Shown one piece after another: positions 1-59,092 of a DNA stretch of 64,000 nt. The notes below the pieces were generated by a model, which was not told the origin of the DNA, searched no databases, and saw only the letters and a list, made by a program, of their open reading frames with translations. Origin of the DNA: Acidimicrobiia bacterium (GTDB lineage Bacteria; Actinomycetota; Acidimicrobiia; Acidimicrobiales; JANYDT01); the NCBI GenBank assembly GCA_031368215.1, contig JANLRD010000274.1, positions 55,878-119,877 of the forward strand. The letters run 5' to 3'. The translations under genes were made by a program, and so were the position numbers. Every line of letters begins with the position of its first letter. Positions within the stretch are counted from its first letter, which is position 1.

Positions 1-608
1 TTCCGCGCTATCACCGAGCGCTGCTGGAGCTGGCGGCGTCGAAGACTGCCACCGTCTCCTCCGACGAGCTGGCTGATCTCGCCGGATTCAATGCCGCCAA
101 GGTCCGCAAGGATCTCAGTTACCTCGGGACCTACGGCACACGCGGCGTCGGGTATGACGTCGACAACCTCCGTCGGCAGATCGGCCGCGAGCTGGGTCTC
201 ACCGAGAGTTGGCCGGTGGTCATCGTCGGCATCGGGAACCTCGGGCGGGCGCTCGCCACCTACAGCGGCTTCGCCATGCGTGGGTTTCGTATTGCCGCCC
301 TCCTCGACGCCGATCCGAGCAAGTCCGGCCAGATGGTCGGGACCCTGGCCGTTCGGCCGTCCTCAGACCTCGCGGGGGTCGTCGAGGCCGAGCATGTCGC
401 GATCGGGATCATCGCTACACCCGGGGTCGCGGCCCAAGACGTCGCCGATCAGCTCGTGGCCGCTGGTGTGCGGTCGATCCTGAACTTCTCACCAGCCGTG
501 CTCAACGTGCCCGAGGGAGTCGCAGTCCGTGGGGTGGATCTGGCGGTCGAGCTCCAGGTCCTGAGCTATCACCAGCACCATCGCGACGATCTCGGCGCCT
601 CGGCATGA
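1..608 (+). CDS. rex: Redox-sensing transcriptional repressor Rex (5' partial)
   Basis: Frame from nt 3 reads PRYHRALL...VSSDELA...AAKVRKDLSYLGTYGTRGVGY (winged HTH), then Rossmann GIGNLG; rex-hemACD order is typical of Actinobacteria. Confidence 0.95.
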   Translation, partial: PRYHRALLELAASKTATVSSDELADLAGFNAAKVRKDLSYLGTYGTRGVGYDVDNLRRQIGRELGLTESWPVVIVGIGNLGRALATYSGFAMRGFRIAALLDADPSKSGQMVGTLAVRPSSDLAGVVEAEHVAIGIIATPGVAAQDVADQLVAAGVRSILNFSPAVLNVPEGVAVRGVDLAVELQVLSYHQHHRDDLGASA

Positions 609-725
609 ACGGGTGCGCGCGCACGTCTGACCGACATCGGTCACACGTGTTTGGCGGCCACGCCGAGATGCGAAAGACTGGTAGATCGTGAGCGCTCGAA
701 TCACCACCGACCTGGGGACCTGCTG

Positions 726-2042
726 ATGTCCCTCGTCGTCGTTGGCCTCCATCACCGGAGCGCGCCGATCGAGTTGCTCGAGCAGGTCACCATCCCGCCC
801 GCCGGCCTGGCCAAGGCCCTTCACGCGCTGCGCAGCGGTGACGACATCGCCGAAGCGGTCATCGTCTCGACCTGCAATCGCACTGAGATCTACGCGGTCT
901 GCGAAACCTTCCACGGCGCGCTCGCCCAGCTGCACCGGTTCCTGACCGATCGGTCCGGGCTCTCGATCGACCAGATCGCACCGCACCTGCACACTGCGTA
1001 CGACGACGCAGTGGCACGGCACCTGTTCACCGTCACCTCCGGTCTGGACTCTGCCGTGGTCGGCGAGACGGAGATCCTGGGTCAGGTGCGCGGCGCGTTC
1101 GACTCCGCTCTTGCTGCGCAGACTGCCGGGCCGCACCTGTCGTCGCTCTTCCGCCATGCGCTCGAAGCCGGCAAACGGGTCCGGACCGAAACCGGGATCT
1201 CCCGCGGCACTGCGTCCGTCTCCCATGCGGCCGTGGAACTCGCAGCCGACCGTCTCGGCTCGCTCAGCGGCCGTTCGGTCCTGGTGCTCGGGGCGGGCGA
1301 GATCGGTGTCTCGATGGCCACGTCGCTGCAGTTCGCCGGGGTCGGAGAGGTGTTCGTGGCGAACCGTACGCGCCAGAAGGCGGCAGCACTGGCGCAGCGC
1401 ATCGGCGCGATCGAGGTGGCCCTCCATGATCTCCCGGGCACATTGGAGCACGTCGACGTGCTGCTCACGGCCACCTCGTCCGAAACCCACGTGCTCGGGC
1501 GTGACGACCTCGAGGCGGTGATGGCGGCCCGCAGCGGCCGCCCGCTGCTCGGCGTCGACACGGGCCTGCCCCGAGACGTGGATCCGAACGCCGGCGAGGT
1601 ACCCGGGGTCACCCTGCTGGACCTCGACGCCATCCGGGCGTTCGTCGAGATCGGCCTGGAGGGCCGTCGACGCGAGATCGACCAGGTCCGCGAGATCGTG
1701 GTCGAGGAAGTCGACCGGTACCGAGCAGGCGCTTCAGCGCGCCTCGTCGCCCCCGTACTGGTCGCGATGCGCGACCACTTCGAGGTCGTACGCGCCGCCG
1801 AGGTCGACCATCTCGACTCGCGGCTGCGCCATCTCTCGGCGGCCGACCGGGATCTCGTGGACCAGTGGACCAAGCGACTCGTCGCAAAGCTCGTGCATAC
1901 CCCCACGGTGCGTTTGAAGGAAGCGGCGGGAACGACTCGAGGGACGCGTATGGCCGATGCTCTCCGCGTGCTCTTCGACCTCGATCGCGAGGATGAGTCG
2001 CCCGAACGCGGGGAAGAGGCTGTCCTTCCTCCGCACGAATGA
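726..2042 (+). CDS. hemA: Glutamyl-tRNA reductase
   Basis: VVGLHH, STCNRTE, GLDSAVVGETEILGQV, GAGEIG motifs; ATG 726. Confidence 0.96.
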   Translation: MSLVVVGLHHRSAPIELLEQVTIPPAGLAKALHALRSGDDIAEAVIVSTCNRTEIYAVCETFHGALAQLHRFLTDRSGLSIDQIAPHLHTAYDDAVARHLFTVTSGLDSAVVGETEILGQVRGAFDSALAAQTAGPHLSSLFRHALEAGKRVRTETGISRGTASVSHAAVELAADRLGSLSGRSVLVLGAGEIGVSMATSLQFAGVGEVFVANRTRQKAAALAQRIGAIEVALHDLPGTLEHVDVLLTATSSETHVLGRDDLEAVMAARSGRPLLGVDTGLPRDVDPNAGEVPGVTLLDLDAIRAFVEIGLEGRRREIDQVREIVVEEVDRYRAGASARLVAPVLVAMRDHFEVVRAAEVDHLDSRLRHLSAADRDLVDQWTKRLVAKLVHTPTVRLKEAAGTTRGTRMADALRVLFDLDREDESPERGEEAVLPPHE

Positions 2043-3780: not shown

Positions 3781-3945
3781 CATCCTGTTTCCGTTGCGGG
3801 GTCCTGTCACCGATCCTCCCCATCCGCTGCGGTACTCGCCCGTTGTTCTCCTCCGTCGAACCGGGTCTCCGTTCCTCGGGCGGGGCCCCATCGGCGCCAC
3901 CCCTCCACTCCCGGGTTGGGCAGGACCCCGTAACGGGGCAGGGTG
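3781..3945 (+). ncRNA. Candidate structured RNA (6S-like long hairpin)
   Basis: 3781-3808 pairs with 3919-3945 (~27 bp with several G-U pairs valid only on + strand); inner stem CTCGCCCG/CGGGCGGG; no credible ORF in this 317-bp gap. Confidence 0.45.
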
Positions 3946-5957: not shown

Positions 5958-6947
5958 GTGAGTGTCCCGATTCCCGAGCGGCGGATGCGTCGCCTGCGTC
6001 AGACGCCGGCGATGCGCCGTCTCGTCGCCCAGACATCGCTGCGGGTCGACGACCTCGTCGCGCCACTGTTCGTGCGGGAGGGGATCACGGAGGCGAACCC
6101 GATCGCCTCGCTGCCCGGGGTGTCGCAGCACACCCTTGACTCGCTGCGCAAGGAGGTGCATGCGCTCGCCGAACTCGGTGTTCCCGGGGTGATCCTGTTC
6201 GGCGTGCCCGTGTCGAAGGACGCGGAGGGTTCGCAGGCCTGGGCCGAGGAGGGGATCGTGCAGGTGGCGCTTCGCCAACTTCGGGCCGACCTCGGCGACG
6301 CCATGGTGATCATGGCCGACCTCTGCGTCGACGAGTACACGAGCCACGGTCATTGCGGCGTGCTGGATGCCGGCGGCAGAGTCGACAACGATCTCACGCT
6401 CGCGATCTACTCGCGGATTGCCCGCGCCCAAGCAGATGCCGGGGCGCACGTCATCGCGCCGAGCGGGATGATGGACGGCCAGGTTGCCGCGATCCGCAAG
6501 GGTCTCGACGACTCGGGGCACACGAACGTCCCGATCCTTGCCTACGCCGCCAAGTATGCGAGCGGGCTCTACGGTCCGTTCCGTGAGGCCGTCGATGTGC
6601 AGATCATCGGTGGAGGCGACCGCAAGGGCTACCAGCAGGACTACCGGAATCAACGCGAGGCGCTCGACGAGGTTTCACTTGATCTGGGTGAAGGCGCCGA
6701 CATGGTGATGGTGAAACCGGCCGTCACGTATCTCGACGTGATCGCGAAGGTCCGTGCACTTACCAATGTCCCGGTTGCGGCGTATCACGTGAGCGGGGAG
6801 TACGCGATGATCCACGCGGCGGCCGAACGCGGCTGGATCGACGGCCCGGCCGTTGCGTTGGAGCAGCTCACCGCCGTCAAGCGAGCCGGGGCCGACATGA
6901 TCCTCACGTACTTTGCTCACGACCTCGCGTCGACCGTCCTCCGCTGA
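5958..6947 (+). CDS. hemB: Porphobilinogen synthase (ALA dehydratase)
   Basis: RMRRLR, DLCVDEYTSHGHCG, SGMMDG, MVKP, AYHVSGEY. Confidence 0.96.
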   Translation: MSVPIPERRMRRLRQTPAMRRLVAQTSLRVDDLVAPLFVREGITEANPIASLPGVSQHTLDSLRKEVHALAELGVPGVILFGVPVSKDAEGSQAWAEEGIVQVALRQLRADLGDAMVIMADLCVDEYTSHGHCGVLDAGGRVDNDLTLAIYSRIARAQADAGAHVIAPSGMMDGQVAAIRKGLDDSGHTNVPILAYAAKYASGLYGPFREAVDVQIIGGGDRKGYQQDYRNQREALDEVSLDLGEGADMVMVKPAVTYLDVIAKVRALTNVPVAAYHVSGEYAMIHAAAERGWIDGPAVALEQLTAVKRAGADMILTYFAHDLASTVLR

Positions 6948-6966
6948 TCCGAACACCTGGTGCCAA

Positions 6967-8316
6967 ATGATCTGTACACGTAGCGATTGCCCGTTCGACG
7001 GATCGGCGGAGTGCGCTACCGCCGACGGCAGCGCCTGCCATACCACCAACGCCTCGGCCTATGCCCGGGCGTCGGAGGTGCTCGTCGGTGGAGTGAACTC
7101 GCCGGTACGCGCGTTCCGCAGCGTCGGAGGCATTCCCTACGTGGTCGCTCGGGGCAACGGCGCCTACGTCTGGGACGTCGAGGGAACCCGTTACATCGAC
7201 CTTGTGCAGTCCTACGGCGCGTCGATTCTCGGACATGCCCATCCGGCGGTGGTCGAAGCGATCCGGGTGTGTGCGGGTCAGGGCACCACCTTCGGCGCTC
7301 CGACCTACCGCGAGATCGTGCTGGCCGAGACGATGTGCGCCCGTGTTCCCGGCCTCGAGATGGTGCGCATGACCTCGAGCGGCACCGAGGCCGCGATGAG
7401 TGCCATCCGACTCGCCCGAGGCATCACCGGCCGCCACAAGGTGCTGAAGTTTGCGGGTTGCTACCACGGTGCCAGCGATTCCCTCCTGGCCGCCGGAGGC
7501 AGCGGTGTGGCCAACCAGGGTCTCCCCGGGAGCGACGGCGTGCCGCCCTCCGCGGTAGCCGACACCATCGTGGCCCCCTACAACGTCATCCCGGAAATCG
7601 GTGCCGACGTCGCCGTGGTTGCCGTCGAGCCGGTCGCCGCCAACATGGGACTCGTCGCGCCGGCACCGGGGTTTCTCCGAGCGCTGCGCGATGCATGCGA
7701 CCGTTCGGGAGCGCTGTTGTTGTTCGACGAGGTGATCACCGGGTTTCGCCTCGGTAGCGGTGGCGCCACCACGTGGTCCGGGGTCACCCCGGATCTCTGG
7801 TGTTTCGGCAAGATCATCGGTGGTGGACTCCCGGTCGGGGCCTTCGGCGGCTCGAAGACCGTCATGTCCCACCTCGCGCCTCTCGGACCGGTGTACCAGG
7901 GCGGCACGCTCTCGGGGAACCCGCTGGCGATGGCCGCCGGCCTCGCCACGCTCAATCTGTGCACCGACGATACGTACAGCGCACTCGAGGAACGAACTGC
8001 CCGATTCGTCGGCGCGCTTACCGACGCGATTGCGGCCTCAGGAATGCCGATCCAGGTCCCTCGGGTCGGCACGATCACCGGTCTTCACCTGAGCGCGACG
8101 GAGATCACCAACTACGACCAGGCCAAGGCGGCCAACACCAACGGCCTGTATGCCCCGTTCTTCCACGAGATGCTCGAGCGTGGGGTGGCGATGGCCCCGG
8201 GTCCGTACGAAGCCCTCTTCCCGTCCTTCGCCCACACCGACGCTGACCTCGACGCCGTAGTGAATGCCGCGGGCGAGTCGGCCGTGGCCGTCATGGCCCG
8301 GGGAGCGGCTGGCTGA
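6967..8316 (+). CDS. hemL: Glutamate-1-semialdehyde 2,1-aminomutase with Cys-rich N-terminal extension
   Basis: GGVNSPVRAF, SSGTEA, FDEVITGFR, GKIIGGGLP, GTLSGNP. Confidence 0.95.
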   Translation: MICTRSDCPFDGSAECATADGSACHTTNASAYARASEVLVGGVNSPVRAFRSVGGIPYVVARGNGAYVWDVEGTRYIDLVQSYGASILGHAHPAVVEAIRVCAGQGTTFGAPTYREIVLAETMCARVPGLEMVRMTSSGTEAAMSAIRLARGITGRHKVLKFAGCYHGASDSLLAAGGSGVANQGLPGSDGVPPSAVADTIVAPYNVIPEIGADVAVVAVEPVAANMGLVAPAPGFLRALRDACDRSGALLLFDEVITGFRLGSGGATTWSGVTPDLWCFGKIIGGGLPVGAFGGSKTVMSHLAPLGPVYQGGTLSGNPLAMAAGLATLNLCTDDTYSALEERTARFVGALTDAIAASGMPIQVPRVGTITGLHLSATEITNYDQAKAANTNGLYAPFFHEMLERGVAMAPGPYEALFPSFAHTDADLDAVVNAAGESAVAVMARGAAG

Positions 8317-8369
8317 TGGGCGCCGGTGAGTCGTTCGCTGCGGTGATCGCACGCAAGGCGGTCGTGTGA
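8316..8369 (+). other. Coupled mini-ORF (17 aa), diverged echo of the hemL 3' end
   Basis: TGATG overlaps at both ends; MGAGESFAAVIARKAVV* vs hemL NAAGESAVAVMARGAAG*, offset 53 bp. Confidence 0.6.
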
Positions 8370-8824
8370 TGGCCTGGTGGCTGATGAAGTCGGAGCCGGA
8401 CGGGTTCTCGATCGACGACCTCAAGGCGCGCAAACGTGAGCCATGGGATGGCGTGCGGAACTTCCAGGCCCGCAACTACATGTGGAAGCAGATGGCGATC
8501 GGTGACCGCGTGTTCTTCTACCACTCGAACTGCAAGGTCCCCGGTATCGTCGGGCTGGCCAAGGTGGCATCCGCGTCGTACCCCGATCCGAGCCAGTTCG
8601 ACTCCTCGTCGAAGTACTTCGACCCGGATTCGTCGCCCGGCGATCCGCGGTGGTGGTTGGTCGACGTCGCGTTCGTGAAGAAGTTCCGCCGGGTGGTCTC
8701 ACTGGACGAACTTCGCACCCACGCCGACGAGCTCGACGGGATGCTCCTTCTCCGCAAGGGCAACCGACTGAGCGTGATGCCCGTCTCCGACGACCACGCC
8801 GACGTGATCCTCTCGCTCGTCTGA
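8369..8824 (+). CDS. EVE domain protein
   Basis: WLMKSEP, WDGVRNFQARN, FFYHSN, RLSVMPV. Confidence 0.93.
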   Translation: MAWWLMKSEPDGFSIDDLKARKREPWDGVRNFQARNYMWKQMAIGDRVFFYHSNCKVPGIVGLAKVASASYPDPSQFDSSSKYFDPDSSPGDPRWWLVDVAFVKKFRRVVSLDELRTHADELDGMLLLRKGNRLSVMPVSDDHADVILSLV

Positions 8825-13119: not shown

Positions 13120-13214
13120 ATGTCTCCGCACCACCGACTCGCCTTCGTGTCAGCTAACGCCCCGCAGGTTCCGAGCACTACCGTTTTGAGCGATCGATCA
13201 GCAGGAGAACTTTC

Positions 13215-14000
13215 GTGACCACACCAATGAAGCCCGGACTCCCGGAGCGCCTCAGCGCCGGACTCGCCAAGTCCGTCGAGAACGTCCAGGGCAGCCAGGC
13301 GTGGAACTCCATCTTCCGCCCCGGGTCGATCTTCCGGAAGGGCTACTCCGACTCGCCGCGTAACCGCAGCTACGTCATCATGAACTCGCTGCTCTACCAC
13401 CTACACCCCGTGAAGGTGAAGCGCCACGCCGTGAAAGTCAGCTACACGCTGTGCCTCGGCGGGCTCTCGTTCTTCCTGTTCATCGTCTTGACGGTCACGG
13501 GCATCTTCTTGATGTTCTTCTACCGCCCCACCGAGGCGCTGGCCTGGCAGGACATCAAGACGCTTCACACCGCGGTCACCTTCGGTCTGCTCGTACGCAA
13601 CATGCATCGATGGGGAGCGCACTTGATGGTGCTTTCCGTCTTCTTGCACATGGCCCGCGTCTTCTACCACGGCGCCTACAAAGCCCCCCGTGAGTTCAAC
13701 TGGGTCATCGGCGTCATCCTCCTCACCTTGACCCTGCTCCTGTCCTTCACCGGCTACCTGCTCCCGTGGGATCAGCTCGCACTGTGGGCGGTGACGGTCG
13801 GTACGAACATGATCGGCTACACCCCAGTTTTCGGTACCCAGTCCAAATTCGTGCTCCTTTCGGGAGTCGAGATCGGCACCAATACGCTCTTGCGGTGGTA
13901 CGTGCTCCACGTGCTGCTCTTCCCGTTCATCATCGTCATCTTCATGGCCATCCACTTCTGGCGGGTCCGCAAAGATGGCGGGATCTCGGGGCCGCTGTGA
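13215..14000 (+). CDS. Cytochrome b, N-terminal (b6-like) subunit
   Basis: YTLCLGG, RNMHRWGAHLMVLSVFLHMARV, GYLLPWDQ, LHVLLFP, ends GISGPL. Confidence 0.93.
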   Translation: MTTPMKPGLPERLSAGLAKSVENVQGSQAWNSIFRPGSIFRKGYSDSPRNRSYVIMNSLLYHLHPVKVKRHAVKVSYTLCLGGLSFFLFIVLTVTGIFLMFFYRPTEALAWQDIKTLHTAVTFGLLVRNMHRWGAHLMVLSVFLHMARVFYHGAYKAPREFNWVIGVILLTLTLLLSFTGYLLPWDQLALWAVTVGTNMIGYTPVFGTQSKFVLLSGVEIGTNTLLRWYVLHVLLFPFIIVIFMAIHFWRVRKDGGISGPL

Positions 14001-14109
14001 TGTCGCATCGCTTTCGTCAACAAACAGCAGGGCGGGATCTCGGGGCCGCTGTGATTCCGCGTCGCCCCTCTCAACCAACAACGCAGCGGGATCTCGGGGC
14101 CGCTGTGAT
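13978..14109 (+). repeat. Three exact 24-bp direct repeats, 54-bp period
   Basis: GCGGGATCTCGGGGCCGCTGTGAT at 13978, 14032 and 14086, with two related 30-bp spacers. Confidence 0.95.
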
Positions 14110-14144
14110 TGGCGCAACTGCATTCTCCGAGCGGAGGACTACTC

Positions 14145-14975
14145 ATGGCTGACATGGAAGAACTGAAGCGCAAGTCCGCTGAAGCCAAAGCGCGCAAACT
14201 GGCCGACAAGGGCGGCGCACCCGCAGCCCCGGTCGCCCCGGCGGCATCGGCTGAGGCCGACGACGCCGCAACGAGCTACGCCGATGCCGAGAAGACCGGG
14301 AAGATCCCTGCGCACCTGCTCGCCCGCAGCGCCGCCGCCAAGGCCGCGAAGGAGTCGGGTGCGTCAGGCGACGCAGTTTCGGGCGGCGGCGTTGCCGTCC
14401 TCGACAAGCCGACCGCAGGTGCAGTAGCCGCAGCGGCAGCGCTGGTCCAGCCCGCCGGTGGTGGCCTGGCTGGTCCGGCCGGTCACACGCAGCGCCTGCT
14501 CACGGTCGTCAAGGCCGGATCGATCCAAGATGTGAAGGCGACACCGACGGACAAGGTCAGCACGTGGCCCCATCTCCTGGTGGGCGAGTTCGTCGCTTCT
14601 CTCGCCTGTCTGACCCTGCTGATGGTGCTTTCGGCATTCGTGAACGCCCCGCTTCTCGAACTGGCGAACTACAACGCCACCCCGAACCCGTCGAAGGCGC
14701 CGTGGTACTTCCTCGGTCTGCAGGAACTGCTCACCATGTTCCACCCGATGGTCGCCGGTGTCACCATCCCGGGTATGGGACTGTTTCTGCTCATCCTCTC
14801 GCCCTACCTCGACAAGAACCCGTCGAACAAGCCCGAGGATCGCAAGTTCGCAATCTCGATCTTCACCATCTTCTTGATGTTCTGGGCTGTGCTCGTGATC
14901 ATCGGCTCGTTCTTCCGAGGACCGGGATTCAACTTCATCATGCCGTGGAAGGAAGGAATCTTCTTCGAGCTGTGA
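14145..14975 (+). CDS. Cytochrome b C-terminal subunit (subunit IV-like) with Ala-rich N-terminal extension
   Basis: TWPHLL, TPNPSKAPWYFLGLQELL (PEWY-equivalent), PYLD. Confidence 0.9.
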   Translation: MADMEELKRKSAEAKARKLADKGGAPAAPVAPAASAEADDAATSYADAEKTGKIPAHLLARSAAAKAAKESGASGDAVSGGGVAVLDKPTAGAVAAAAALVQPAGGGLAGPAGHTQRLLTVVKAGSIQDVKATPTDKVSTWPHLLVGEFVASLACLTLLMVLSAFVNAPLLELANYNATPNPSKAPWYFLGLQELLTMFHPMVAGVTIPGMGLFLLILSPYLDKNPSNKPEDRKFAISIFTIFLMFWAVLVIIGSFFRGPGFNFIMPWKEGIFFEL

Positions 14976-15009
14976 GCGTCCGCTCGCAGCCACCGCTGGA
15001 GGCCCCACT

Positions 15010-15900
15010 ATGAACGCCACCGTTCTCATCATTGCCATCGTCGTCGTCGTGGTGCTCGCCGCTGCGGCAGTTGGCACCATGTCCCGACGCACCGACCGCG
15101 GCGCGGCGACCGGGCTCTTGGCCCGCGAGACAGTCAAGCGCGACCGGTCCCGCCGCCGTCAGGCGAAGGCCGCCGACGCCGTCGCAACACCGCCTCCGCC
15201 GTCCGGTCGGGCCGTGGAGAAAGCAATGGTGCTGGCGCGCGCTGGCGGCGATGTGGAGCTCCGTCCCGCTCCCGGCGCCCCAGCGGTCCTGCGGGCTCCG
15301 ATGGACGCCGAACAACTCGGCGTCACCCGCCGCCAGTTCCTCAATCGCTCGACGATCGCCATGTTCACCGCCGGTCTCGGTGGTTTCGGTGCCGCTGTTC
15401 TTGCGTTCCTCTGGCCAAGCCTCTCCGGCGGCTTCGGCTCGAAGGTCACCCTCGGCAAGGTCAGCGACATCCTCACGGATATCGCCGCCAAGAAGGAACC
15501 CAAGTACTTCGCGGAAGCGCGCACCTACATCACCGCATATCCGAAGGAAGACGTCGCCAAGGCCAAGAAGGTCTACGCGCCAGGTGTCGTCCGAGGCATG
15601 GAGTCCGGCGTCGCGGCGCTCTACCAGAAGTGCGTCCACCTCGGCTGCAAGGTGCCGTGGTGTACGAACTCCCAGTGGTTCGAGTGCCCGTGCCATGGAT
15701 CGAAATACAATCGGGTGGGCGAGTACAAGTCCGGCCCGGCGCCCCGAGGACTTGATCGGTTCGACGTGATCATCGACGGTTCGGGCAACGTGACCGTGGA
15801 TACTTCACAGGTCAGAATCGGTCCCGCCCAGGGCACCAACACCACCGGCCAGGAGGCCGAGGGACCCCATTGCGTCGGCGGCAAGGCCGGCGGGCACTGA
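15010..15900 (+). CDS. Rieske 2Fe-2S subunit
   Basis: CVHLGC and CPCHGS; internal TRRQFL twin-arginine motif before a TM helix. Confidence 0.94.
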   Translation: MNATVLIIAIVVVVVLAAAAVGTMSRRTDRGAATGLLARETVKRDRSRRRQAKAADAVATPPPPSGRAVEKAMVLARAGGDVELRPAPGAPAVLRAPMDAEQLGVTRRQFLNRSTIAMFTAGLGGFGAAVLAFLWPSLSGGFGSKVTLGKVSDILTDIAAKKEPKYFAEARTYITAYPKEDVAKAKKVYAPGVVRGMESGVAALYQKCVHLGCKVPWCTNSQWFECPCHGSKYNRVGEYKSGPAPRGLDRFDVIIDGSGNVTVDTSQVRIGPAQGTNTTGQEAEGPHCVGGKAGGH

Positions 15901-18033: not shown

Positions 18034-18522
18034 ATGGCGGCCTATCTGCCGATCGTCCTCCTGTTCGTGCTGGCCCTGGTGTTCGTCTTCGGGTCGATCG
18101 TCGCTTCAACCGTCCTCGGACCTCGACGACGCGTGAACACCGCGAAGACCGGGCCCTACGAATGCGGGATCGTGCCCGACAAGGAGCCCGCTGAGCGCTT
18201 CCCGGTCAGGTTCTATCTCGTCGCCATGATCTTCATCATCTTCGACATCGAGATCATCTTCTTATATCCGTGGGCTGTGCGCTTCAACGCGCTCGGTACG
18301 TTCGGGCTCGTCGAAATGGTGATCTTCTCGATCGCCGTCGTTGTTGCCTTCACGTATCTGATCAGCAACGGCGCACTCGACTGGGCACCGATGAACCGTC
18401 TTCGCCGCCTCGAAGCGAGCTCGGGCAGGACGTCTGGCGACCGCACCACATCGTCCACGATCCGGAAGGTGTCCCGCCCCGTCGGTGCGCCGGCCGGTCC
18501 CCCCGAAGAAACGGCGGCGTAG
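18034..18522 (+). CDS. nuoA: NADH-quinone oxidoreductase subunit A
   Basis: YECG, FIIFDIEIIFLYPW, GALDW. Confidence 0.96.
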   Translation: MAAYLPIVLLFVLALVFVFGSIVASTVLGPRRRVNTAKTGPYECGIVPDKEPAERFPVRFYLVAMIFIIFDIEIIFLYPWAVRFNALGTFGLVEMVIFSIAVVVAFTYLISNGALDWAPMNRLRRLEASSGRTSGDRTTSSTIRKVSRPVGAPAGPPEETAA

Positions 18523-18525
18523 GCC

Positions 18526-19074
18526 ATGGGCCTCGAAGATCTCAACCACAACTTCCTCACCGGTTCGCTCGAGAAGTTCGTCAACTGGTCGCGCAAGTCG
18601 TCCACCTGGCCGGCGTCGTTCGGTCTCGCGTGCTGCGCCATCGAAATGATGGCCACCGGTGCGTCACGTTTCGACATCTCGCGGTTCGGCATGGAGGTCT
18701 TCCGCGGTTCGCCGCGGCAGGCCGACCTCATGATCGTTGCCGGCCGCGTCAGCCAGAAGATGGCGCCGGTCCTCCGTCAGGTCTACGACCAGATGATGGA
18801 ACCGAAGTGGGTCATCTCGATGGGTGTGTGTGCGTCGTCGGGTGGCATGTTCAACAACTACGCGATCGTGCAAGGCGTCGATCAGATCGTCCCGGTGGAT
18901 GTCTACGCACCCGGATGCCCTCCGGGCCCGGAGACGCTCCTCTACGCGATCATGACGCTGCACGAGAAGATTCAGACCGGCGAGATCGCCCAGCGCCGAC
19001 ACGACAACGGTGGCGGTGCCTCGCTCCGTCTCGACGTTCCGCCGGCGACCATCTCCATCGGCACGCCGAAGTAG
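18526..19074 (+). CDS. nuoB: NADH-quinone oxidoreductase subunit B
   Basis: [19 protein letters not shown]. Confidence 0.97.
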
Positions 19075-19080
19075 GCCGCG

Positions 19081-19620
19081 ATGTCAAACATGGCAACCAG
19101 TTCCGACGCAGTCGCAGCGGAGCCCGAACTCCTGCACGGCGCACCTGTTTCCTACAGCCGCGGCGAGAAGGTTGTGCACCCCAGTGCCGCGACCTACGTG
19201 AACGTCGTCAAAGCGTTGTATGGCGACGGCTTCCGGATGGCTGTCGACCTCACTGCGGTCGACTACCTCACCAACGCGACCCGCGTGCTTCCGGCGGGTG
19301 TCGAACCGCAGCGCTTCGAAGTGGTCGTCAATCTGCTGTCGCATGCGCGCCGAGAACGGATCCGTGTCCGGGTTCAGCTTTCGGGCGATGTCCCGACGAT
19401 CGCCTCGCTCTACGGCGTGTATCCGGGGACCGAGGCGATGGAGCGTGAAGCTTTCGATCTCCTCGGTGTCCGGTTCGACGGACACCCGGATCTCACGCGC
19501 ATCCTGCTGCCCGACGACTGGCAGGGGCACCCGTTGCGCAAGGATGAAGCCACGGGGCGGATCCCCGTCCAGTTCACCCACAACGTGACGCCGCGTTCGA
19601 CGCCAGCGAGGACGACATGA
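19081..19620 (+). CDS. nuoC: NADH-quinone oxidoreductase subunit C
   Basis: EREAFDLLGV, GHPDLTRIL, GHPLRKD. Confidence 0.95.
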   Translation: MSNMATSSDAVAAEPELLHGAPVSYSRGEKVVHPSAATYVNVVKALYGDGFRMAVDLTAVDYLTNATRVLPAGVEPQRFEVVVNLLSHARRERIRVRVQLSGDVPTIASLYGVYPGTEAMEREAFDLLGVRFDGHPDLTRILLPDDWQGHPLRKDEATGRIPVQFTHNVTPRSTPARTT

Positions 19621-20918
19621 ACTTCGGACAGGAGATGCAGGACCGCGGCTCCACGACGGCCGCGGAGCTGCTCCGAGAGCAGGGTGCAGTGCTACGCGGC
19701 GTCAGCGACGACGCGGCGATCGACATCAACGACTACGACATCGAGCTCGGCGACGACGAGACGATGATCATCAACATGGGTCCGCAGCACCCGAGCACCC
19801 ACGGCGTGCTGCGCGTGATGCTCGAGCTCAAGGGCGAAACCGTTCTGCGGACCAAGCCGGTCGTCGGTTACCTCCATACCGGAATGGAGAAGACCGCAGA
19901 GGGTCTGACTTTCCTGCAGGGCGGCACCAACGTCACGCGCATGGACTACCTCGCGCCGCTCTTCAACGAACTGGCCTTCTCGCTCGCCACCGAGAAACTG
20001 CTCGACGTGGAGATCCCCGAGCGGGCCACGTGGATCCGCATGCTGATGTGCGAGCTCAACCGCATGGCATCGCATCTGCTGTTCCAGGCCACGAACGGCA
20101 TGGACCTCGGTGCGGTCGGCATGATGATCTACGGATGGCGTGAGCGCGAACTCGTACTGTCGTTCTTCGAGAAGGTCACCGGTCTCCGGATGAACCACAA
20201 CTACATCCGGCCGGGCGGCGTGGCCGCTGATCTTCCGCCGGGTTGGCAGCAGGACGTGCTCGACCTCTGCGCCGACATCGAGCCCCGCCTCGACCAATAC
20301 GACATCCTGCTCACCGGTCAGCCGATCTTCCTCGACCGCACCCAGGGCGTTGGCGTGATCACCGCCGATGAGGCGATCGCCCTCTCCGCCACGGGTCCGA
20401 TCCTGCGCTCGACGGGGGTCGAATGGGACCTACGCCGCGACATGCCCTACCTCGCCTACGACCAGGTCGACTTCGACGTGATCGTCGGTACGCGCGGCGA
20501 CGCGTTCGACCGCTATGCAATCCGTCTCAACGAGATCCGCGAATCGATCCGCATCGTCCGCCAGATCGTCGACATGATGCCGGCAGGCGACTATCGCACC
20601 CAGAACAAGAAGGTCACGCCGCCGCCGCGTAGCCGCATCGACGAATCGATGGAAGCGCTCATCCATCATTTCAAGCTCTTCACCGACGGCTTCAAAGTCC
20701 CCGAAGGCGAGGTCTATGTGCCCGTCGAGTCTCCCCGTGGCGAGGTCGGCTGCTACATGGTCAGTGACGGCGGCACCAAGCCCTATCGCATGCACTGGCG
20801 CGGGCCGTCTTTCGTCAACCTCCAGTCGATGCCCACGATGATGCAGGGCGCTCAGGTTGCCGACGCGATTGCGATCATCTCGTCGATCGATCCGGTGCTT
20901 GGCGAGGTCGACCGATGA
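19617..20918 (+). CDS. nuoD: NADH-quinone oxidoreductase subunit D
   Basis: GPQHPSTHGVLR, GYLHTGMEK, ESPRGE, GEVDR. Confidence 0.97.
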   Translation: MNFGQEMQDRGSTTAAELLREQGAVLRGVSDDAAIDINDYDIELGDDETMIINMGPQHPSTHGVLRVMLELKGETVLRTKPVVGYLHTGMEKTAEGLTFLQGGTNVTRMDYLAPLFNELAFSLATEKLLDVEIPERATWIRMLMCELNRMASHLLFQATNGMDLGAVGMMIYGWRERELVLSFFEKVTGLRMNHNYIRPGGVAADLPPGWQQDVLDLCADIEPRLDQYDILLTGQPIFLDRTQGVGVITADEAIALSATGPILRSTGVEWDLRRDMPYLAYDQVDFDVIVGTRGDAFDRYAIRLNEIRESIRIVRQIVDMMPAGDYRTQNKKVTPPPRSRIDESMEALIHHFKLFTDGFKVPEGEVYVPVESPRGEVGCYMVSDGGTKPYRMHWRGPSFVNLQSMPTMMQGAQVADAIAIISSIDPVLGEVDR

Positions 20919-20958
20919 CGAACATATGTGCACGTAGTTCCTGGAAGGGTTGTTAGAG

Positions 20959-21522
20959 ATGGCTCGTTTCTCCCCCGCAAATCTGGAGCGCGCCAAGGAA
21001 CTCCTTTCCCACTACCCGCGCCCCAAGAGCGCGACGATTCCGATGTGCCATCTCGCGCAGGAGCAGGACGGCTACCTCACCGAAGATGCGATGGGTCACA
21101 TCGCCGAGCTGGTCGGGTGCTCCAACGCCGAGGTCTACGGCACGGCCACGTTCTACGAGATGTTCAAGTTCCATCCCGTCGGGACCTACGTGGTCGGTGT
21201 GTGCACGAACATCGCCTGTCTGCTCGTCGGCGGGGAAGAACTGCTCGACCACGCCAGCGACTCGCTCGGGATCCGTCCCGGAGCGACGACGGCCGATGGA
21301 CTCTTCACCCTCGAGGAGATGGAGTGCCTTGCTGCGTGCACCGAGGCACCGTGCCTTCAGGTGAACTACCGCTACGAGAACAAGGTCACCGACGAAGGTT
21401 TCGACCGTCTGGTCGCCGACCTGCGGGCCGGGAAGCGCAACGACATCCCGCGCCACGGCACCCTCGGCGCCGTGCGCCAGTCCATTCCCGCTGATCGTCG
21501 GGCCGGGGTCAAGGCCATCTAG
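20959..21522 (+). CDS. nuoE: NADH-quinone oxidoreductase subunit E
   Basis: CTNIAC and ECLAACTEAP 2Fe-2S ligands. Confidence 0.96.
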   Translation: MARFSPANLERAKELLSHYPRPKSATIPMCHLAQEQDGYLTEDAMGHIAELVGCSNAEVYGTATFYEMFKFHPVGTYVVGVCTNIACLLVGGEELLDHASDSLGIRPGATTADGLFTLEEMECLAACTEAPCLQVNYRYENKVTDEGFDRLVADLRAGKRNDIPRHGTLGAVRQSIPADRRAGVKAI

Positions 21523-21563
21523 GCCCGGCCCCTTCCTTTCGCACGTTTCGTCACGAGGATCTC

Positions 21564-22904
21564 ATGCCCGCACCCACCAAAATGATCTCCACTCGATGGG
21601 ATCAGGCCGACGGCCACACGCTCGACGGCTATCTCCGAACGGGCGGCTACGAGGCGCTCCGCAAAGCGCTCGCGATGGCTCCGGAAGCGGTGGTCGACGA
21701 AGTGAAGGCGGCCAATCTCGCCGGCCGCGGCGGCGCCGGATTCCCGTGCGGCACCAAATGGGGGTTCCTTCCGAAGGACGTGTTCCCCCGCTACCTCGTC
21801 GTCAACGGTGACGAATCCGAGCCGGGCACCTACAAGGACCGCATCCTGCTCGAGCGCGATCCGCATCAGCTCATTGAAGGGGTCCTGATCGCATCGTGGG
21901 CAATCAAGGCCGAGCAGGCGTTCATCTACATCCGCGGGGAGATGCCTCATGCGCACGAGCGCATGGCCGCGGCGCTGAACGAGGCCTACGCCGCCGGCTA
22001 CATCGGCAAGAACATCTGTGGCACCGACTGGTCGATCGACGTCGTGCTGCACTGGGGTGCCGGCGCGTACATCGTCGGTGAGGAGACGGCGCTGATCGAG
22101 TCGCTCGAAGGCAACCGGGGCATGCCGCGGTTGAAGCCGCCGTTCTTCCCGGCGTCGAAGGGCCTCTACATGCAGCCCACCGTGGTGAACAACGTGGAGA
22201 CCCTGGCGAACCTGCCGTGGATCATCACCAATGGTGCCGCCGCCTTCACCAGCTTCGGCAATGAGAAGAACACCGGCACCCGCCTCTTCGCGGTGTCCGG
22301 TCACGTCAAGAACCCCGGAGTCTTCGAAGTCGAGTTCGGCACCACAACGTTCCGCGAGCTCTTCTACGACTTCTGCGGCGGCATCCGCGACGACCGTCGG
22401 GTCAAGGCGTTCATTCCGGGCGGTGGCTCTGCGCCGTGGTTCTTCGAGGAGGATCTCGACACGCCGCTCGATGCCGGTGTCGTCGGCGGCAAGGGGTCGA
22501 TGCTCGGCTCCGGGGCCATCGTGGTCATGGACGAGACGACCGACATGGTCAAGGCGGCGTGGCGCATCGTGAAGTTCTTCGCCAAGGAGAGCTGTGGCAA
22601 GTGCTCACCGTGCCGTGAGGGGACCAACTGGATGGAGAAGATCTACCGCCGGATCCTCGACGGTGAGGGCCGACCCGAAGACGTCAACCTGCTGCTCGAC
22701 GTCGCCGACAACATCAGCCCAGGGCTCACCTGGCCGCCCCGGCAGACCACGATCTGTCCGCTCGGTCCGTCAGCCGCGGCCGGCGCGCTGGTGAGCTCCA
22801 TCCGCCGTTTCCCGGCCGAATACGAGCACTACATCGTCCACGGCCGACCCGTCGACGGCCTGTCCACGGGTGTCTACCGGCCCTCGCTCACTTCCGCCTC
22901 CTGA
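21564..22904 (+). CDS. nuoF: NADH-quinone oxidoreductase subunit F
   Basis: GRGGAGF, DESEPGT, GAYIVGEETAL, ESCGKCSPCREG. Confidence 0.97.
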   Translation: MPAPTKMISTRWDQADGHTLDGYLRTGGYEALRKALAMAPEAVVDEVKAANLAGRGGAGFPCGTKWGFLPKDVFPRYLVVNGDESEPGTYKDRILLERDPHQLIEGVLIASWAIKAEQAFIYIRGEMPHAHERMAAALNEAYAAGYIGKNICGTDWSIDVVLHWGAGAYIVGEETALIESLEGNRGMPRLKPPFFPASKGLYMQPTVVNNVETLANLPWIITNGAAAFTSFGNEKNTGTRLFAVSGHVKNPGVFEVEFGTTTFRELFYDFCGGIRDDRRVKAFIPGGGSAPWFFEEDLDTPLDAGVVGGKGSMLGSGAIVVMDETTDMVKAAWRIVKFFAKESCGKCSPCREGTNWMEKIYRRILDGEGRPEDVNLLLDVADNISPGLTWPPRQTTICPLGPSAAAGALVSSIRRFPAEYEHYIVHGRPVDGLSTGVYRPSLTSAS

Positions 22905-22920
22905 CCCGCCAGGTTCTCCC

Positions 22921-26825: not shown

Positions 26826-26827
26826 CC

Positions 26828-27493: not shown

Positions 27494-27496
27494 GTC

Positions 27497-28032
<536 letters not shown>

Positions 28033-28036
<4 letters not shown>

Positions 28037-51436: not shown

Positions 51437-51548
51437 TGCCGGAGCGGAGAACTATCGTGCTCGGCGCCATGACCGAGAGCGGCCCCGTCACGCCGAGTAC
51501 CGGCGCCGGACCGACGAAAGCCGACAGCGGAATGCAAGGAGCGGGTGC

Positions 51549-52769
51549 GTGACCGCAATCATCGAGCCGGGAACGAGCACCGCTGCGTTCAGCGCGAACA
51601 GCCCCGAACAGCTGAAGCAGGCGGCATACATCGCCGCCCAGGCGTCCGACATGCGGGTCAACGTCGAAGTCGCTACCGACGACGGCATGACCGTCAACAT
51701 CGGCCCCCAGCACCCGGCGACCCACGGGACGCTGCGGATCATCGCCAAGCTCGACGGTGAGCAGGTCATCGAGTGCGAGCCCTACATGGGCTACATGCAC
51801 CGTGGCTACGAGAAGCTCACCGAAGTCCGCACGTACCCCCAGATCACGACCCTCGTGAACCGCATCGACTGGCTGTCGAGCTTCGCCAACGAGGTTCCCT
51901 TCATCCTCGCCGCCGAGCAACTCATGGGCATCGAGGCTCCTCCCCGAGCGCAGTGGATCCGCACCTGCCTGTTCGAGATGGCCCGCATCGCCAACGTCGC
52001 CCTCTTCCTCGGTGACATGGGTGTGCAGCTGGGCGCCATCACCCCCGTGTTCTTCGCCTTCCGCGACCGGGAGCACGTGCTCAACCTCATCGAAGCCGCG
52101 ACCGGTGGACGCTTCCACCCGAACTACGACCGCATCGGCGGCCTCAAGGAAGACCTCCCGAAGGGATGGATCGCCGAGGCCAAGACCGTCATGAACAAGG
52201 TCCGCACCTTCTGTGACGAGCTCGAGCAGCTTCTCATGGGCAACCGGATCTTCCAGGAGCGTTGCCGTGGCGTAGGAGTGATCCCCGTCGACAAGGCGAT
52301 GGACTTCGGGCTCTCCGGCGCCAATGCCCGGGCGTCGGGAATCGACTGGGACATCCGACGCGACCAGCCGTCGCCGCTGGTGTGGAACAAGCTCGACTGG
52401 AACGTCATCACCCACCCCGACGGCGACTCCTTCGCCCGCTACTGGGTGCGCCTCCAGGAGACCCGCGAAGCCGCCAAGATGGTCGATCAGATGCTTGACG
52501 GTCTGCCGTCGGGACCGATCATGGCGAAGGTCCCCCGGATCATCAAAGTGGCTGCCGGCGAAACCTATGTCGCCACGGAGAACCCCCTCGGCGAGATGGG
52601 CTATTACGTCGTGTCGAAGGGCGGTCTCGGACCGTTCCGGGTGAAGATCCGCACGGCGAGCTTCAACAACATCGGGATCGTGCCGTGGATCATGAAGGGT
52701 GTGTTCGTGCCTGACATCATCACGATCCTGGCGTCGCTGTATTTCATCCTCGGCGACATCGACCGCTGA
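51549..52769 (+). CDS. nuoD: Second complex I subunit D
   Basis: GPQHPATHGTLR, GYMHRGYEK, ENPLGE, GDIDR. Confidence 0.96.
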   Translation: MTAIIEPGTSTAAFSANSPEQLKQAAYIAAQASDMRVNVEVATDDGMTVNIGPQHPATHGTLRIIAKLDGEQVIECEPYMGYMHRGYEKLTEVRTYPQITTLVNRIDWLSSFANEVPFILAAEQLMGIEAPPRAQWIRTCLFEMARIANVALFLGDMGVQLGAITPVFFAFRDREHVLNLIEAATGGRFHPNYDRIGGLKEDLPKGWIAEAKTVMNKVRTFCDELEQLLMGNRIFQERCRGVGVIPVDKAMDFGLSGANARASGIDWDIRRDQPSPLVWNKLDWNVITHPDGDSFARYWVRLQETREAAKMVDQMLDGLPSGPIMAKVPRIIKVAAGETYVATENPLGEMGYYVVSKGGLGPFRVKIRTASFNNIGIVPWIMKGVFVPDIITILASLYFILGDIDR

Positions 52770-57498: not shown

Positions 57499-57505
57499 GA
57501 GAACC

Positions 57506-59032
57506 ATGTTGGACTTTCTGAACGGTTGGGGGCTCACCCTCATCATCTTCCTGCCGGCGCTGACGGCGTTGGTCGTGATGGTGACGCCGAACAAGGACGA
57601 GGAGAACGTCAAGATCGTGGGGCTGATCGGCGCGGTTGCCACGTTGGTCGTGAGCATCGTGACCATCTCGTACTTCAACTTCGATCGGGCCGGTCAGGCC
57701 CAGTTCGTCGTGAACCGTTCCTGGATCGACACGATCAACTCGAACTACCACGTGAGCCTCAACGGCCTGGGCCTGCCGATGTTGGTCCTGTCGAACGTGG
57801 TGATCGTCCTCTGCATCGTCTACTCGTGGAACCACTGGCCCGAGCCGCACAACCCCAAGGCCGTGCTCGCCCTGATGCTCATCCTCGAGACCGGCATGAA
57901 CGGTGTGTTCGTCGCCCAGGACCTGATCCTCTTCTTCGTGTTCTTCGAGCTCACGCTGCTCCCGATGTACTTCCTCATCGGCGTGTGGGGCGGACCGAAC
58001 CGCCAATACGCGTCGATCAAGTTCTTCCTCTACACGATGTTCGGTTCAGCGTTCATGCTTCTCGGCTTCTTGGCGCTCTACTTCAAAGCCGGCCGCACGT
58101 TCGATATCGACCAACTCATCGCCAACGTGCAGACCGCCGGCATCTCGTCGGGCACCCAGTCGCTGATCTTCGGCGGCATCTTCCTCGGCTTCGCCGTGAA
58201 GGTGCCGATGTTCCCGTTCCACACCTGGCTCCCCGATGCCCACACCGAAGCCCCGACCGTCGGCTCGGTGATCCTCGCCGCGGTCCTCCTGAAGCTCGGC
58301 ACGTTCGGATTCATCAAGATCGCTATTCCGATCCTTCCCGACGCCGCCAAGGACTGGGCGCCGTTCATCGGTGTCCTTGCGGCGATCGGCATCATCTACG
58401 GCGCACTCGGCTGTCTGGCCCAGACCGATATGAAACGCCTCATCGCCTTCTCGTCCGTCGCCCACATGGGTTATGTGATGCTCGGCATTTCGACCCTGAC
58501 GAGCTACGGCATGAATGCCGCGCTCTTCGGCATGGTCGCCCACGGCCTCATCACGGGCATGTTGTTCTTCGTTGCCGGATCCGTCAAGGAGCGCTTCCAC
58601 ACCTTGGAGATCGCCCGCCTCGGCGGACTGCTCGAGACGATGCCGAAGCTCGGTTGGGTGTTCGGTTTCGCGTCGATGGCCTCGCTCGGCCTTCCCGGTC
58701 TTGCCGGCTTCTGGGGCGAGTTCCCCTCGATCCTGTCGGCGTACAACCCCGCTGAGGGGCTCAACGTCGCGCTCTTCCGTGGCCTCATGGTTGTAGCTGC
58801 GGTCGGCACGGTGTTCGCCGCCGGGTACCTGCTCTGGCTGTATCAGCGCACCGCGTTCGGGACCCAGAAAGAGGAGTGGAACGGCCACCACTTCCACGAT
58901 GTGATGCCGAGCGAGTGGATCGCCTGGGCACCATTCCTCGCCGGCATCGTCGTGTTCGGTGTGTGGCCCAGGTTGATGTACTCCGTGACTGACCCAGCCG
59001 TGCAGGTCATCACCAAGGTCTTCGGGGGCTGA
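57506..59032 (+). CDS. nuoM: Second complex I subunit M
   Basis: HTWLPDAHTEAPTVGS, LLKLG, FSSVAH. Confidence 0.96.
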   Translation: MLDFLNGWGLTLIIFLPALTALVVMVTPNKDEENVKIVGLIGAVATLVVSIVTISYFNFDRAGQAQFVVNRSWIDTINSNYHVSLNGLGLPMLVLSNVVIVLCIVYSWNHWPEPHNPKAVLALMLILETGMNGVFVAQDLILFFVFFELTLLPMYFLIGVWGGPNRQYASIKFFLYTMFGSAFMLLGFLALYFKAGRTFDIDQLIANVQTAGISSGTQSLIFGGIFLGFAVKVPMFPFHTWLPDAHTEAPTVGSVILAAVLLKLGTFGFIKIAIPILPDAAKDWAPFIGVLAAIGIIYGALGCLAQTDMKRLIAFSSVAHMGYVMLGISTLTSYGMNAALFGMVAHGLITGMLFFVAGSVKERFHTLEIARLGGLLETMPKLGWVFGFASMASLGLPGLAGFWGEFPSILSAYNPAEGLNVALFRGLMVVAAVGTVFAAGYLLWLYQRTAFGTQKEEWNGHHFHDVMPSEWIAWAPFLAGIVVFGVWPRLMYSVTDPAVQVITKVFGG

Positions 59033-59092
59033 GGGCTGATGTCCGCGTTCGCCCGCCCACTTCGCAACGCCACCGGAGGCTGATCAGCGCTC

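Follow-up and report, generated by a model that had tools for sequence, protein, structure and literature searches.

The window analysed in this study is the whole 64,000-nt stretch taken from contig JANLRD010000274.1 of an Acidimicrobiia bacterium, and our subject is a kind of short repeat found in it at the junctions of co-oriented genes, where the 3′ end of the upstream gene recurs a little more than 50 nt further on. Five gene ends in the window have their own copy 51–54 nt downstream, namely those with stops at 8316, 14000, 33978, 34546 and 59032 (Table 1). The original prediction, made from the sequence of the window, had placed such copies at four junctions, at offsets of 53, 54, 53 and 53 bp; that claim holds, and the echo of stop 34546 was missing from its list.

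Table 1. Repeat units, the gene ends that they copy, and neighbouring genes in the window
Position	Strand	Feature	Remark
8305–8316	+	Source copy: 3′ end with TGA of class-III aminotransferase gene 6913–8316	
8317–8369	+	One 53-nt unit: linker and degenerate gene-end copy (8358–8369)	Holds mini-ORF (open reading frame) 8316–8369
13120–13214	+	Spacer without echo in the window genome (G000)	Junction bears echoes in congeners
13979–14000	+	Source copy: 3′ end with TGA of cytochrome b N-terminal-half gene 13215–14000	
14001–14108	+	Two 54-nt units, each linker and 22-nt gene-end copy (14033–14054, 14087–14108)	
33949–33978	+	Source copy: 3′ end of second nuoA-like gene 33613–33978	Stop now TGA; empty sites TAG
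33979–34031	+	One 53-nt unit: linker with shared module and nuoA-end copy (34002–34031)	
34510–34546	+	Source copy: 3′ end of nuoB-like gene 34022–34546	
34547–34599	+	One unit, period 53: linker and truncated nuoB-end copy (34563–34591; original 34510–34538)	
51437–51552	+	Old degenerate double unit, tentative	About 100 nt extra relative to congeners; ends in native junction sequence
59024–59032	+	Source copy: 3′ end with TGA of gene 57506–59032	
59033–59083	+	One 51-nt unit, ending in degenerate stop-region copy (59074–59083)	Holds mini-ORF 59039–59083
3–608		Rex	Pfam
726–2042		HemA	Pfam
6913–8316	+	Class-III aminotransferase	Pfam
8366–8824	+	EVE-domain protein	Pfam
13215–14000 and 14145–14975	+	Split cytochrome b, N-terminal and C-terminal halves	Pfam
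33613–33978 and 34022–34546	+	Second NuoA/NuoB pair	Pfam
	+	Family-III CoA-transferase, after the nuoB-like gene	Pfam

Echo units in the window and their counterparts in congeners

An unbiased self-offset scan of the window (offsets 15–300, at least 21 of 24 matches) returned six segments at three loci only, those of stops 14000, 33978 and 34546, with offsets that were all 53, 54 or 108. Within the window the other two echoes are weak (15/20 at offset 53 for stop 8316 and 14/20 at offset 51 for stop 59032), and it is the comparison with congeners, that is, the other genomes within a nine-genome genus to which the window genome (G000) belongs, that delimits them. Set against the empty site of G008, the 8316 unit is a clean insertion of 53 nt; it is carried by G000, G003, G007, G002 and G005, and directly after it, the EVE-domain gene starts in a TGATG overlap. 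The 59032 unit is a 50–51-nt insertion carried by six genomes and lacking in G001, G004 and G006.

At the cytochrome b junction, Tandem Repeats Finder (TRF) gives the array behind stop 14000 a period of 54 and 2.5 copies, and 3′ of it lies native spacer with a ribosome-binding site, followed by the start of the C-terminal-half gene at 14145. One to three units occur at this junction in G002, G003, G005, G007 and G008, none in G001, G004 and G006, and in other genera these units are found in 0 of 21 loci. Unit lengths were measured against a congener's empty site except at this junction, where the unit period was used, the spacers of the unit-free congeners having diverged.

The nuoA/nuoB junction displays the most instructive pair of empty and filled sites. 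The empty site, found in G001, G004, G009, G012 and G015, is a 10-nt overlap of a TAG stop and a GTG start, which is the ancestral state, and one or two 53-nt units are present in seven of the nine genus genomes. In the filled sites the last copy retains the native TAG and the real nuoB start, and the first copy, which is the end of nuoA, has acquired TGA. In the window the nuoA-end copy thus contains the real GTG start of nuoB (34022) and the native TAG, and the mini-ORF 33969–34031 opens at the copied GTG and closes at the native stop. This second nuoA/nuoB pair stands directly behind nuoN of a complete nuo operon (about 18034–33554).

At the end of nuoB, the copy is joined internally to the upstream region of the CoA-transferase gene, the conserved start of which lies near 34615. 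Congeners G003, G005, G007 and G008 carry one or two units of 54 nt at this locus; G002, G001 and G006 carry none. The CoA-transferase gene itself (window 34563–35820) is not adjacent to nuoB in G001, G002, G006 and G008. G010, which belongs to a different genus, has a gene of 91% identity to it on another contig, amid DNA of about 77% identity, an observation suggesting that a rearrangement or transfer ended up in the nuoB array.

Two further junctions have to be considered. Around 51437–51552, the anchor-to-anchor gap is 134 nt in six genomes as against 30–59 nt in G004, G006 and G001, and the two ends of the segment are weakly similar in the window by eye; it is probably an old, degenerate double unit, an assignment that we regard as tentative. 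The junction at 13119/13120 is counted as a recurrent target because congeners carry echoes there, at offset 31 in G001 and at offset 54 in G006, with the linker end at the joint in both.

Period, placement and anatomy across the genome

The host genome is a 4.94-Mb draft of 293 contigs with 65.8% G+C, a metagenome-assembled genome (MAG) that is 95% complete. The closest relatives of its cytochrome b are from Acidimicrobiales/Acidimicrobiia MAGs with 82–90% protein identity, Microthrixaceae and Ilumatobacteraceae among them. Of the best 80 relatives, nearly all bear the names of Acidimicrobiales, Acidimicrobiia or wider actinobacterial groups in their titles; two MAG titles name other taxa (Verrucomicrobiota, Bifidobacterium), and Mycobacterium is named in 0/80. 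Judged from these relatives, the host is an Acidimicrobiales MAG and not a mycobacterium.

The echoes are real, genome-wide and beyond chance. In G000 we find 249 repeat loci, with period peaks at 53 (20 loci) and 56 (13 loci) and few loci at 54, 55 and 57 (5, 5 and 4); a second period class lies at 82–88 nt (22 loci), and among periods 31–50 only multiples of 3 occur. Genome-wide counts rest on gene calls made for this study, which comprise 4275 genes over 88% of the genome and in which stops are reliable and starts are longest-ORF guesses. On this basis, stop regions are echoed at 51–58 nt at 30 of 4275 stops, compared with 3, 0 and 0 of 3048 control positions each at 150, 300 and 450 nt inside genes (3/9144 in total; Fisher p = 2e-12). 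A fixed unit length with a genome-wide offset peak at 53–54 had been predicted, and the peaks indeed appear, at 53 and 56. A called gene stop is spanned by 36 of the 58 loci of period 50–60. Of these 58 periods 34 are 2 mod 3 (binomial p = 7e-5), which is the opposite of coding repeats. Arrays hold 1.5–4.5 copies. Spacer lengths, surveyed genome-wide, gave no clear peak that would betray hidden degenerate units. The correlation of −0.98 between the length of the target copy and that of the linker was discarded as evidence, as it is forced by choosing periods 50–60; the period histogram is the evidence.

That these repeats are artefacts of assembly or similarities arising by chance is the least credible explanation, with next to nothing to recommend it. 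It could appeal to the draft state of a MAG in 293 contigs and to the 7 of 58 arrays that touch a contig end. Against it stand the rarity of echoes at interior control positions and the recurrence of the same units, with differing copy numbers, in up to seven other assemblies of the genus. Moreover, the 14000 array is bridged by contigs of public runs from two studies, namely X3 record 24 (13946–14400, one difference, no gap) and X4 record 31 (13947–14115, no differences), although the best holder may be the source sample. None of the refutations that the original prediction had named, assembly artefacts included, is borne out.

Beyond the genus, the periods differ. They are 61–62 in a 400-kb sample of G010 and 57–63 in a 400-kb sample of G018, with few arrays in both. 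Among 80 loci of diverse Acidimicrobiales (290 kb) there are 14 repeat segments, only two of them of the junction-unit kind: L086 at offset 81, core-like and right after the cytochrome b gene, and L106 at offset 54.

To describe the anatomy of the units, each locus was laid out in rows of one period and then split into x, the last nucleotides of the upstream gene including its stop, which are copied; y, the nucleotides that repeat downstream sequence; and a linker. A common plan emerges, in which the gene end X with its stop is followed by y nt of downstream sequence, by the linker and by X again. While x ranges over 4–51 nt and the linker over 5–45 nt, the period stays at 51–59; in many units y amounts to 1–19 nt. 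This parsing bears out the earlier claim that the units copy their own host junction. The start side may be repeated as well, as at C35, whose unit contains ATGA and about 12 codons of the downstream gene.

The same claim had gone on to describe the units as largely unrelated to each other, and in this respect it has to be revised. The linkers have a common right end, often AGCAGAG, which coincides with the joint to the copy. Read position by position, the ten final letters of the linkers are most often AAGGAGCAGA, each present in 10–18 of 31 loci, and they are followed by G (18 loci) and C (15 loci) in the copy. By eye, GCAG(A) lies at the joint or at most 6 nt from it in 14/31 loci, a one-letter variant in 5/31, and neither in 12/31. 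The linkers are also T-poor, with T at 41/496 in their last 16 positions as against 92/496 in the matching upstream positions (p = 3e-6).

A module of about 23 nt, GGTCCGGC..., lies about 20 nt before the joint in longer linkers, namely those of C51, C65/C157, C179, C150 and the nuoA unit of the window, and it recurs in a 53-nt nuoD/nuoE unit carried by G001 only. In loci with the full module the local copy measures 29–31 nt and the module 23–27 nt; over all loci the split varies continuously. The C51 and C65 linkers, right-justified, are identical at 21 of 30 positions by eye, and C150 and C272, both of period 56, have an identical linker head directly after the stop. The long class (82–88 nt) has the ends of the short class plus a GC-rich core of about 38 nt, which is at least 90% conserved in 24 aligned copies, its flanking linkers being 45–75% conserved.

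These features bear on the simplest alternative, pure local tandem duplication, in which slippage or mis-ligation of flaps duplicates about 53–56 nt, the ruler is set by the replication or repair machinery, and the linker is a diverged copy of the flank. In its favour are many units with a downstream part y of 1–19 nt, the sharp onset of non-coding periods at 52–53 nt, the lack of a transposase-like enzyme in searches for RVT_1 (reverse transcriptase) and Y1_Tnp (Y1 transposase), and two individual loci. C172 is a plain 55–56-nt tandem duplication without a family linker, its filler matching the downstream sequence at 14/21 positions in G003 and G005, and at C79 the G000 state is nothing more than the doubling of a segment, bounded by ATGA, that already existed. 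In a comparison of 21 loci (498 positions), however, linkers match the in-register downstream sequence at 158 positions (32%) and the upstream sequence at 166 (33%), against about 27% estimated from composition, and comparisons with the complement, reverse and reverse complement, which stand for inverted or complementary origins, give 24–28%. The module and joint motif common to unlinked loci and to the G001-only unit, the conserved core of the long class and the different periods of different genera count against it as well, and we consider it unlikely as a general explanation. As far as sequence comparison goes, the linkers are not copies of their own flanks, yet are related between unlinked loci and genomes, and this kinship argues for templated spread of a family element over repeated local duplication. 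As genome-wide words, 7–9-mers of the joint motif are not enriched over permuted words; 11–12-mers are mildly enriched, for example 9 occurrences against a median of 1.

At the RNA level, the long unit is less structured than all 200 of its shuffles (z = +2.6), which would fit a spacer that must not block ribosomes. The arrays show no stronger folding than shuffled sequence (14000 array, z = −0.9; nuoA unit, z = −2.2), and an Rfam scan of the window found no family at gathering score.

Other repeats were encountered on the way. A dispersed element of about 150 nt (L179:1843–1994, which is G000:C148:29642–29793) occurs in the genus at over 50 further places per genome and consists of a perfect hairpin, a short palindrome and an 18-nt end sequence that is present twice, with the GC-rich core of the long class between its copies. 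It is present in every genus genome searched, and there is none at E ≤ 1e-8 in 120 other genomes of the order, of which only two belong to the same family. A dispersed sequence of about 36 nt (window 3810–3845, which is G000:C282:59687–59722; also C115, C127, C221, C34, C150 and C191) has at least nine copies at 89–100% identity and forms part of a 54-nt tandem unit at C115:77085. In another genus, L010 (G020) has at its cytochrome b junction an insertion of about 95 nt with a reversed GC-rich core; it lies at the downstream gene's start codon, and the start region is duplicated. Finally, a 21-nt tandem repeat of 2.7 copies occupies window positions 61790–61845, in the spacer after gene 60630–61760.

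Turnover of the units and translational coupling

Insertions are lineage-specific, with precise empty sites in relatives. The inserted unit measures 53 nt at 8316, nuoA and both C57 loci, 54 nt at nuoB and, per unit, at the cytochrome b junction, 55 nt at C65b, 55–56 nt at C172, 56 nt at C148 and 50–51 nt at 59032. Congeners have between 0 and 3 units at the cytochrome b junction and between 0 and 2 at nuoA, nuoB and C65b. The copies evolve in concert, because both X copies have common genome-specific substitutions: at C148, both carry genome-specific letters in G000 and again in G003, where the linker has also converted the start of the downstream gene. At C57-2, an identical linker is found in G000, G003, G007 and the distant G006, and not in G005, G002, G008 and G001. 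It follows that precise loss must be common, and a unit cannot be dated by its absence; the proposal that the C148 unit is young, based on its absence from G005 and G007, was dropped for this reason. The same junctions are also hit independently, as seen in the other insertions at nuoA/nuoB in G010 and G013 and in the echoes at 13119 in G001 and G006.

All twelve mini-ORFs listed in the original prediction as daisy-chained between coupled genes exist as ORFs. Six of them lie in insertions (8316, 14000, 33969 and 59039, with 13120 as a recurrent target and 51433 tentatively); the rest lie in ordinary spacers, those at 605–726, 12685, 14972, 20915 and 33554 being of conserved length in congeners. 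The wider claim of coupled chains at ten junctions holds only in part, but the test against shuffled DNA does not refute it. By a formal rule, doubly coupled mini-ORFs occupy 140 of 1280 co-oriented junctions of the genome, as against 97.8 ± 7.2 with shuffled spacers (0 of 100 shuffles reach 140), and 6 of 23 junctions in the window, as against 3.0 ± 1.2 (10 of 300 shuffles reach 6). The excess is thus genuine, but about 70% of coupled mini-ORFs are expected by chance, and echo loci hold just 10 of the 140. ORFs that open at NTGA stops show a small bump at lengths of 57 and 60 nt (21 and 23, against 13–19 for adjacent lengths).

Within the echo loci themselves, the connection with coupling is much tighter. 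Where an ATGA, GTGA or TTGA overlap is combined with a period of 2 mod 3, all nine of nine loci have a mini-ORF that opens at the copied start and closes precisely at the copied stop, and the nuoA locus behaves likewise. These nine are among the 31 stop-echo loci, in which two more of period 2 mod 3 are linked otherwise. A period of 2 mod 3 closes the ORF from the copied start at the next copied stop for 4-nt overlaps of the ATGA type, for 1-nt overlaps of the TGATG type and for the 10-nt overlap of nuoA/nuoB alike, and with such a mini-ORF the ribosome would reach the true start in its native termination-reinitiation context. The view that the units keep ribosome coupling, which had been put forward for the window, is therefore supported by the reading frames, with 34 of 58 periods 2 mod 3 and an exact mini-ORF at each NTGA-overlap locus of that period.

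Could the mini-ORFs instead be functional genes for small proteins or leader peptides, with the repeats as their duplications? The genome-wide excess of doubly coupled mini-ORFs is in line with this idea, as is the in-frame conservation of 688–726 before hemA and of 14972–15013. However, the linker motif occurs in all three frames relative to the stop and x mod 3 varies; between congeners the linkers change rapidly, unlike the copies, which remain similar; copy number ranges from 0 to 3; and an ORF is missing altogether from 7 of 18 units with a period of 2 mod 3. We regard this possibility as very improbable.

Two of the spacers deserve mention in their own right. The 12-codon ORF at 688–726 ends in TGATG on the hemA start, and its length and frame are kept in G007, G003, G008 and G001; G006 has an 11-codon version that ends 2 nt before the hemA start, and the sequence diverges between genomes. 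It is possibly a coupled upstream ORF for hemA. The same rex-hemA spacer contains a conserved block around 640–700, which is perhaps an operator or promoter. The 13-codon mini-ORF at 14972–15013 runs from a GTGA overlap to an ATGA overlap, has the same length in seven of eight genus loci and has GGAGG in the spacer.

Origin of the units and relation to known systems

Taken as a whole, the pattern is probably best accounted for by a minisatellite family native to this lineage of Acidimicrobiales and similar to the interspersed repetitive units of mycobacteria (MIRUs), with separate steps of birth, slippage, selection and relay. At birth, a unit-length stretch with the family linker would be joined to local junction sequence. 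The period would be inherited from existing units, with no universal physical ruler; inheritance from founder units is favoured over such a ruler because periods differ between genera. Arrays would then grow and shrink by slipped-strand events or unequal recombination between copies, and purifying selection would retain only insertions that leave both genes intact. At junctions with overlapping stop and start (ATGA, GTGA, TGATG), selection would retain only periods of 2 mod 3. There, a mini-ORF opened at the copied start would close at the copied stop and pass the ribosome on to the real start of the downstream gene, in the context native to it; such mini-ORFs would be relays rather than protein genes.

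How the first joint is made is a more difficult question. We tentatively entertain a templated, unit-length transfer from an existing unit, which is possible but falls short of being probable. In every case truncation affects the stop side of the linker and spares its end at the joint. A constant sum of target copy and linker would be the outcome if a unit's length of DNA with the linker at its end went in x nt ahead of a stop, and local sequence then took the place of its left part, in register. A more specific version of this scheme, which we think doubtful, would make the linker end a site-specific joint: existing arrays would release DNA of 53/56 or about 86 nt at that site, this DNA would be pasted a few to fifty bases before the stop of another gene, and the local gene end would then take over its left part, in register. 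Such cassette-like transfer between operon junctions would be run by a host enzyme and be common to Actinomycetota.

Several observations weigh against the account of a linker-borne minisatellite family. No common linker end is seen at the 12 of 31 loci noted above, and a search for linker donors, in which 20 linkers were compared with the genome by BLAST, yielded only self-matches and matches of at most 17 nt. RVT_1 and Y1_Tnp were not found in the 95%-complete G000, so no enzyme can be named; a search for Y2_Tnp matched in no control genome and is hence uninformative. The constant sum of target copy and linker is explained by no demonstrable step. The plain duplication at C172 does without the family linker, and the echo at offset 31 in G001, at the 13120 junction, indicates that unit length is not absolute. 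Finally, no start lies near the stop in seven of the 18 loci whose period is 2 mod 3, and coupling cannot explain the period there; in four of these seven the period is exactly 56, so it would seem to be inherited as well, and not only selected.

An autonomous mobile element is a further alternative: an enzyme encoded elsewhere, be it a transposase, an HUH nuclease, a site-specific recombinase or a reverse transcriptase, would cut DNA at the end of the linker and carry unit-length pieces from junction to junction. It would readily explain why the linker end stands exactly at the joint whatever the length of the copy, why the joint overlaps the target by one or two letters (G or GC), and why unit length is constant within subfamilies, as in four uncoupled loci that are all of 56 nt, C150 and C272 with the same linker head. 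MIRUs, too, are read as mobile, with tetranucleotide direct repeats, in secondary accounts of Supply 1997 (PMC3184786, PMC12548453). However, the negative searches for RVT_1 and Y1_Tnp in G000 and for a linker donor, together with the lack of any gene consistently adjacent to the units, make this alternative distinctly unlikely. The resemblance to transposable elements, including miniature inverted-repeat transposable elements (MITEs), lies in the duplication of local sequence on both sides of a family-specific insert and in the precise empty sites. They differ in that the present duplication measures 4 to about 51 nt and the linker 5–45 nt with a constant sum, and in the lack of terminal inverted repeats and of the two enzyme families searched for.

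Spacer uptake by CRISPR systems likewise yields a product of the form copy, new piece, copy, with a measured length. The present units are similar to CRISPR repeat duplication in this form and in their measured length. Here, however, any gene end serves as the "repeat", with variable length; there is neither leader nor cas context; and the new piece is family-specific rather than foreign.

The closest parallels are in mycobacteria. In the accounts of MIRUs given by PMC3184786 and PMC12548453, which cite Supply 1997, these are units of 40–100 bp, often in tandem, that lie in operon spacers, with tetranucleotide direct repeats and empty sites in relatives. The same sources have them inserted at start codons or stop/start overlaps, with an ORF that overlaps the flanking genes and is coupled at −4 to the downstream gene, and for the mini-ORFs a role in termination-reinitiation has been proposed (PMC12548453). 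Table 1 of PMC3004912 includes short and long size classes of 53 and 77 bp, and 11 of the 15 typing loci in it have units of 51–59 bp. The present units are comparable in length (51–59 and 82–88 nt), in spanning a gene stop (36/58), in variable copy number and in empty sites, and at 9 of 31 stop-echo loci the ends of the ORF overlap the flanking stop and start. Both groups also have a short and a long class (53/77 bp in mycobacteria; 53/56 and 82–88 nt here), although here the long class exceeds the short by about 30 nt, compared with 24 nt in mycobacteria. The differences lie in the host, Acidimicrobiales being in another class of the phylum, and in composition: the units described here are mostly local gene-end copy (up to 51 nt), with only the 5–45-nt linker common between loci. 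MIRUs have a one-family consensus over the whole unit; the units here have a joint motif in 14–19 of 31 loci, the module of about 23 nt at five loci of G000 and one of G001, and the core of about 38 nt in the long class, the rest being local. This comparison is one of architecture; the linker may resemble the MIRU consensus, but we do not file the units as MIRUs.

Exact tandem repeat (ETR) and variable-number tandem repeat (VNTR) loci provide a second parallel. According to PMC2734929, ETR-F (VNTR3239) in the rnc-fpg spacer has locus-specific units of 55 bp (37 + 18) and 79 bp (37 + 26 + 16), with their end at the fpg start; the locus is confined to the M. tuberculosis complex, and its length correlates with fpg expression. 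The Acidimicrobiales units share with such loci a locus-specific sequence, restriction to a lineage, a position between co-oriented genes, an end at the downstream start, and the combination of a constant part with a short or long linker. They differ in the group of organisms and in the joint motif, which is not described for the mycobacterial loci in the parts of the literature covered here. In the literature covered by our search, we found no paper on such units in Acidimicrobiia and none on MIRU or ETR units that copy the upstream gene end. On architectural grounds, we classify the units as MIRU/ETR-like junction minisatellites in Acidimicrobiia, outside mycobacteria. The suggestion that they form an undescribed system was thus overstated, given how their anatomy parallels that of mycobacterial MIRU and ETR/VNTR loci as presented in PMC12548453, PMC3184786 and PMC2734929.

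MIRU/VNTR loci have been used for mycobacterial typing for over two decades, and in the papers covered their origin and their preference for units of about 53–58 bp are left unexplained. A distant actinobacterial class with the same architecture provides comparative material on the mechanism of birth, in the form of pairs of empty and filled sites, a motif locked to the joint and a constant length despite a variable copy. The constant unit length with a variable local copy, together with the joint-locked linker end, could make the question of birth testable. If true, cassette-like transfer would explain the birth of mycobacterial MIRU/ETR loci and of units of 51–59 bp. The 2 mod 3 rule, in turn, is a natural example of operon insertions that are tolerated only if the termination-reinitiation relay is rebuilt, and it bears on how coupling constrains the evolution of operons.

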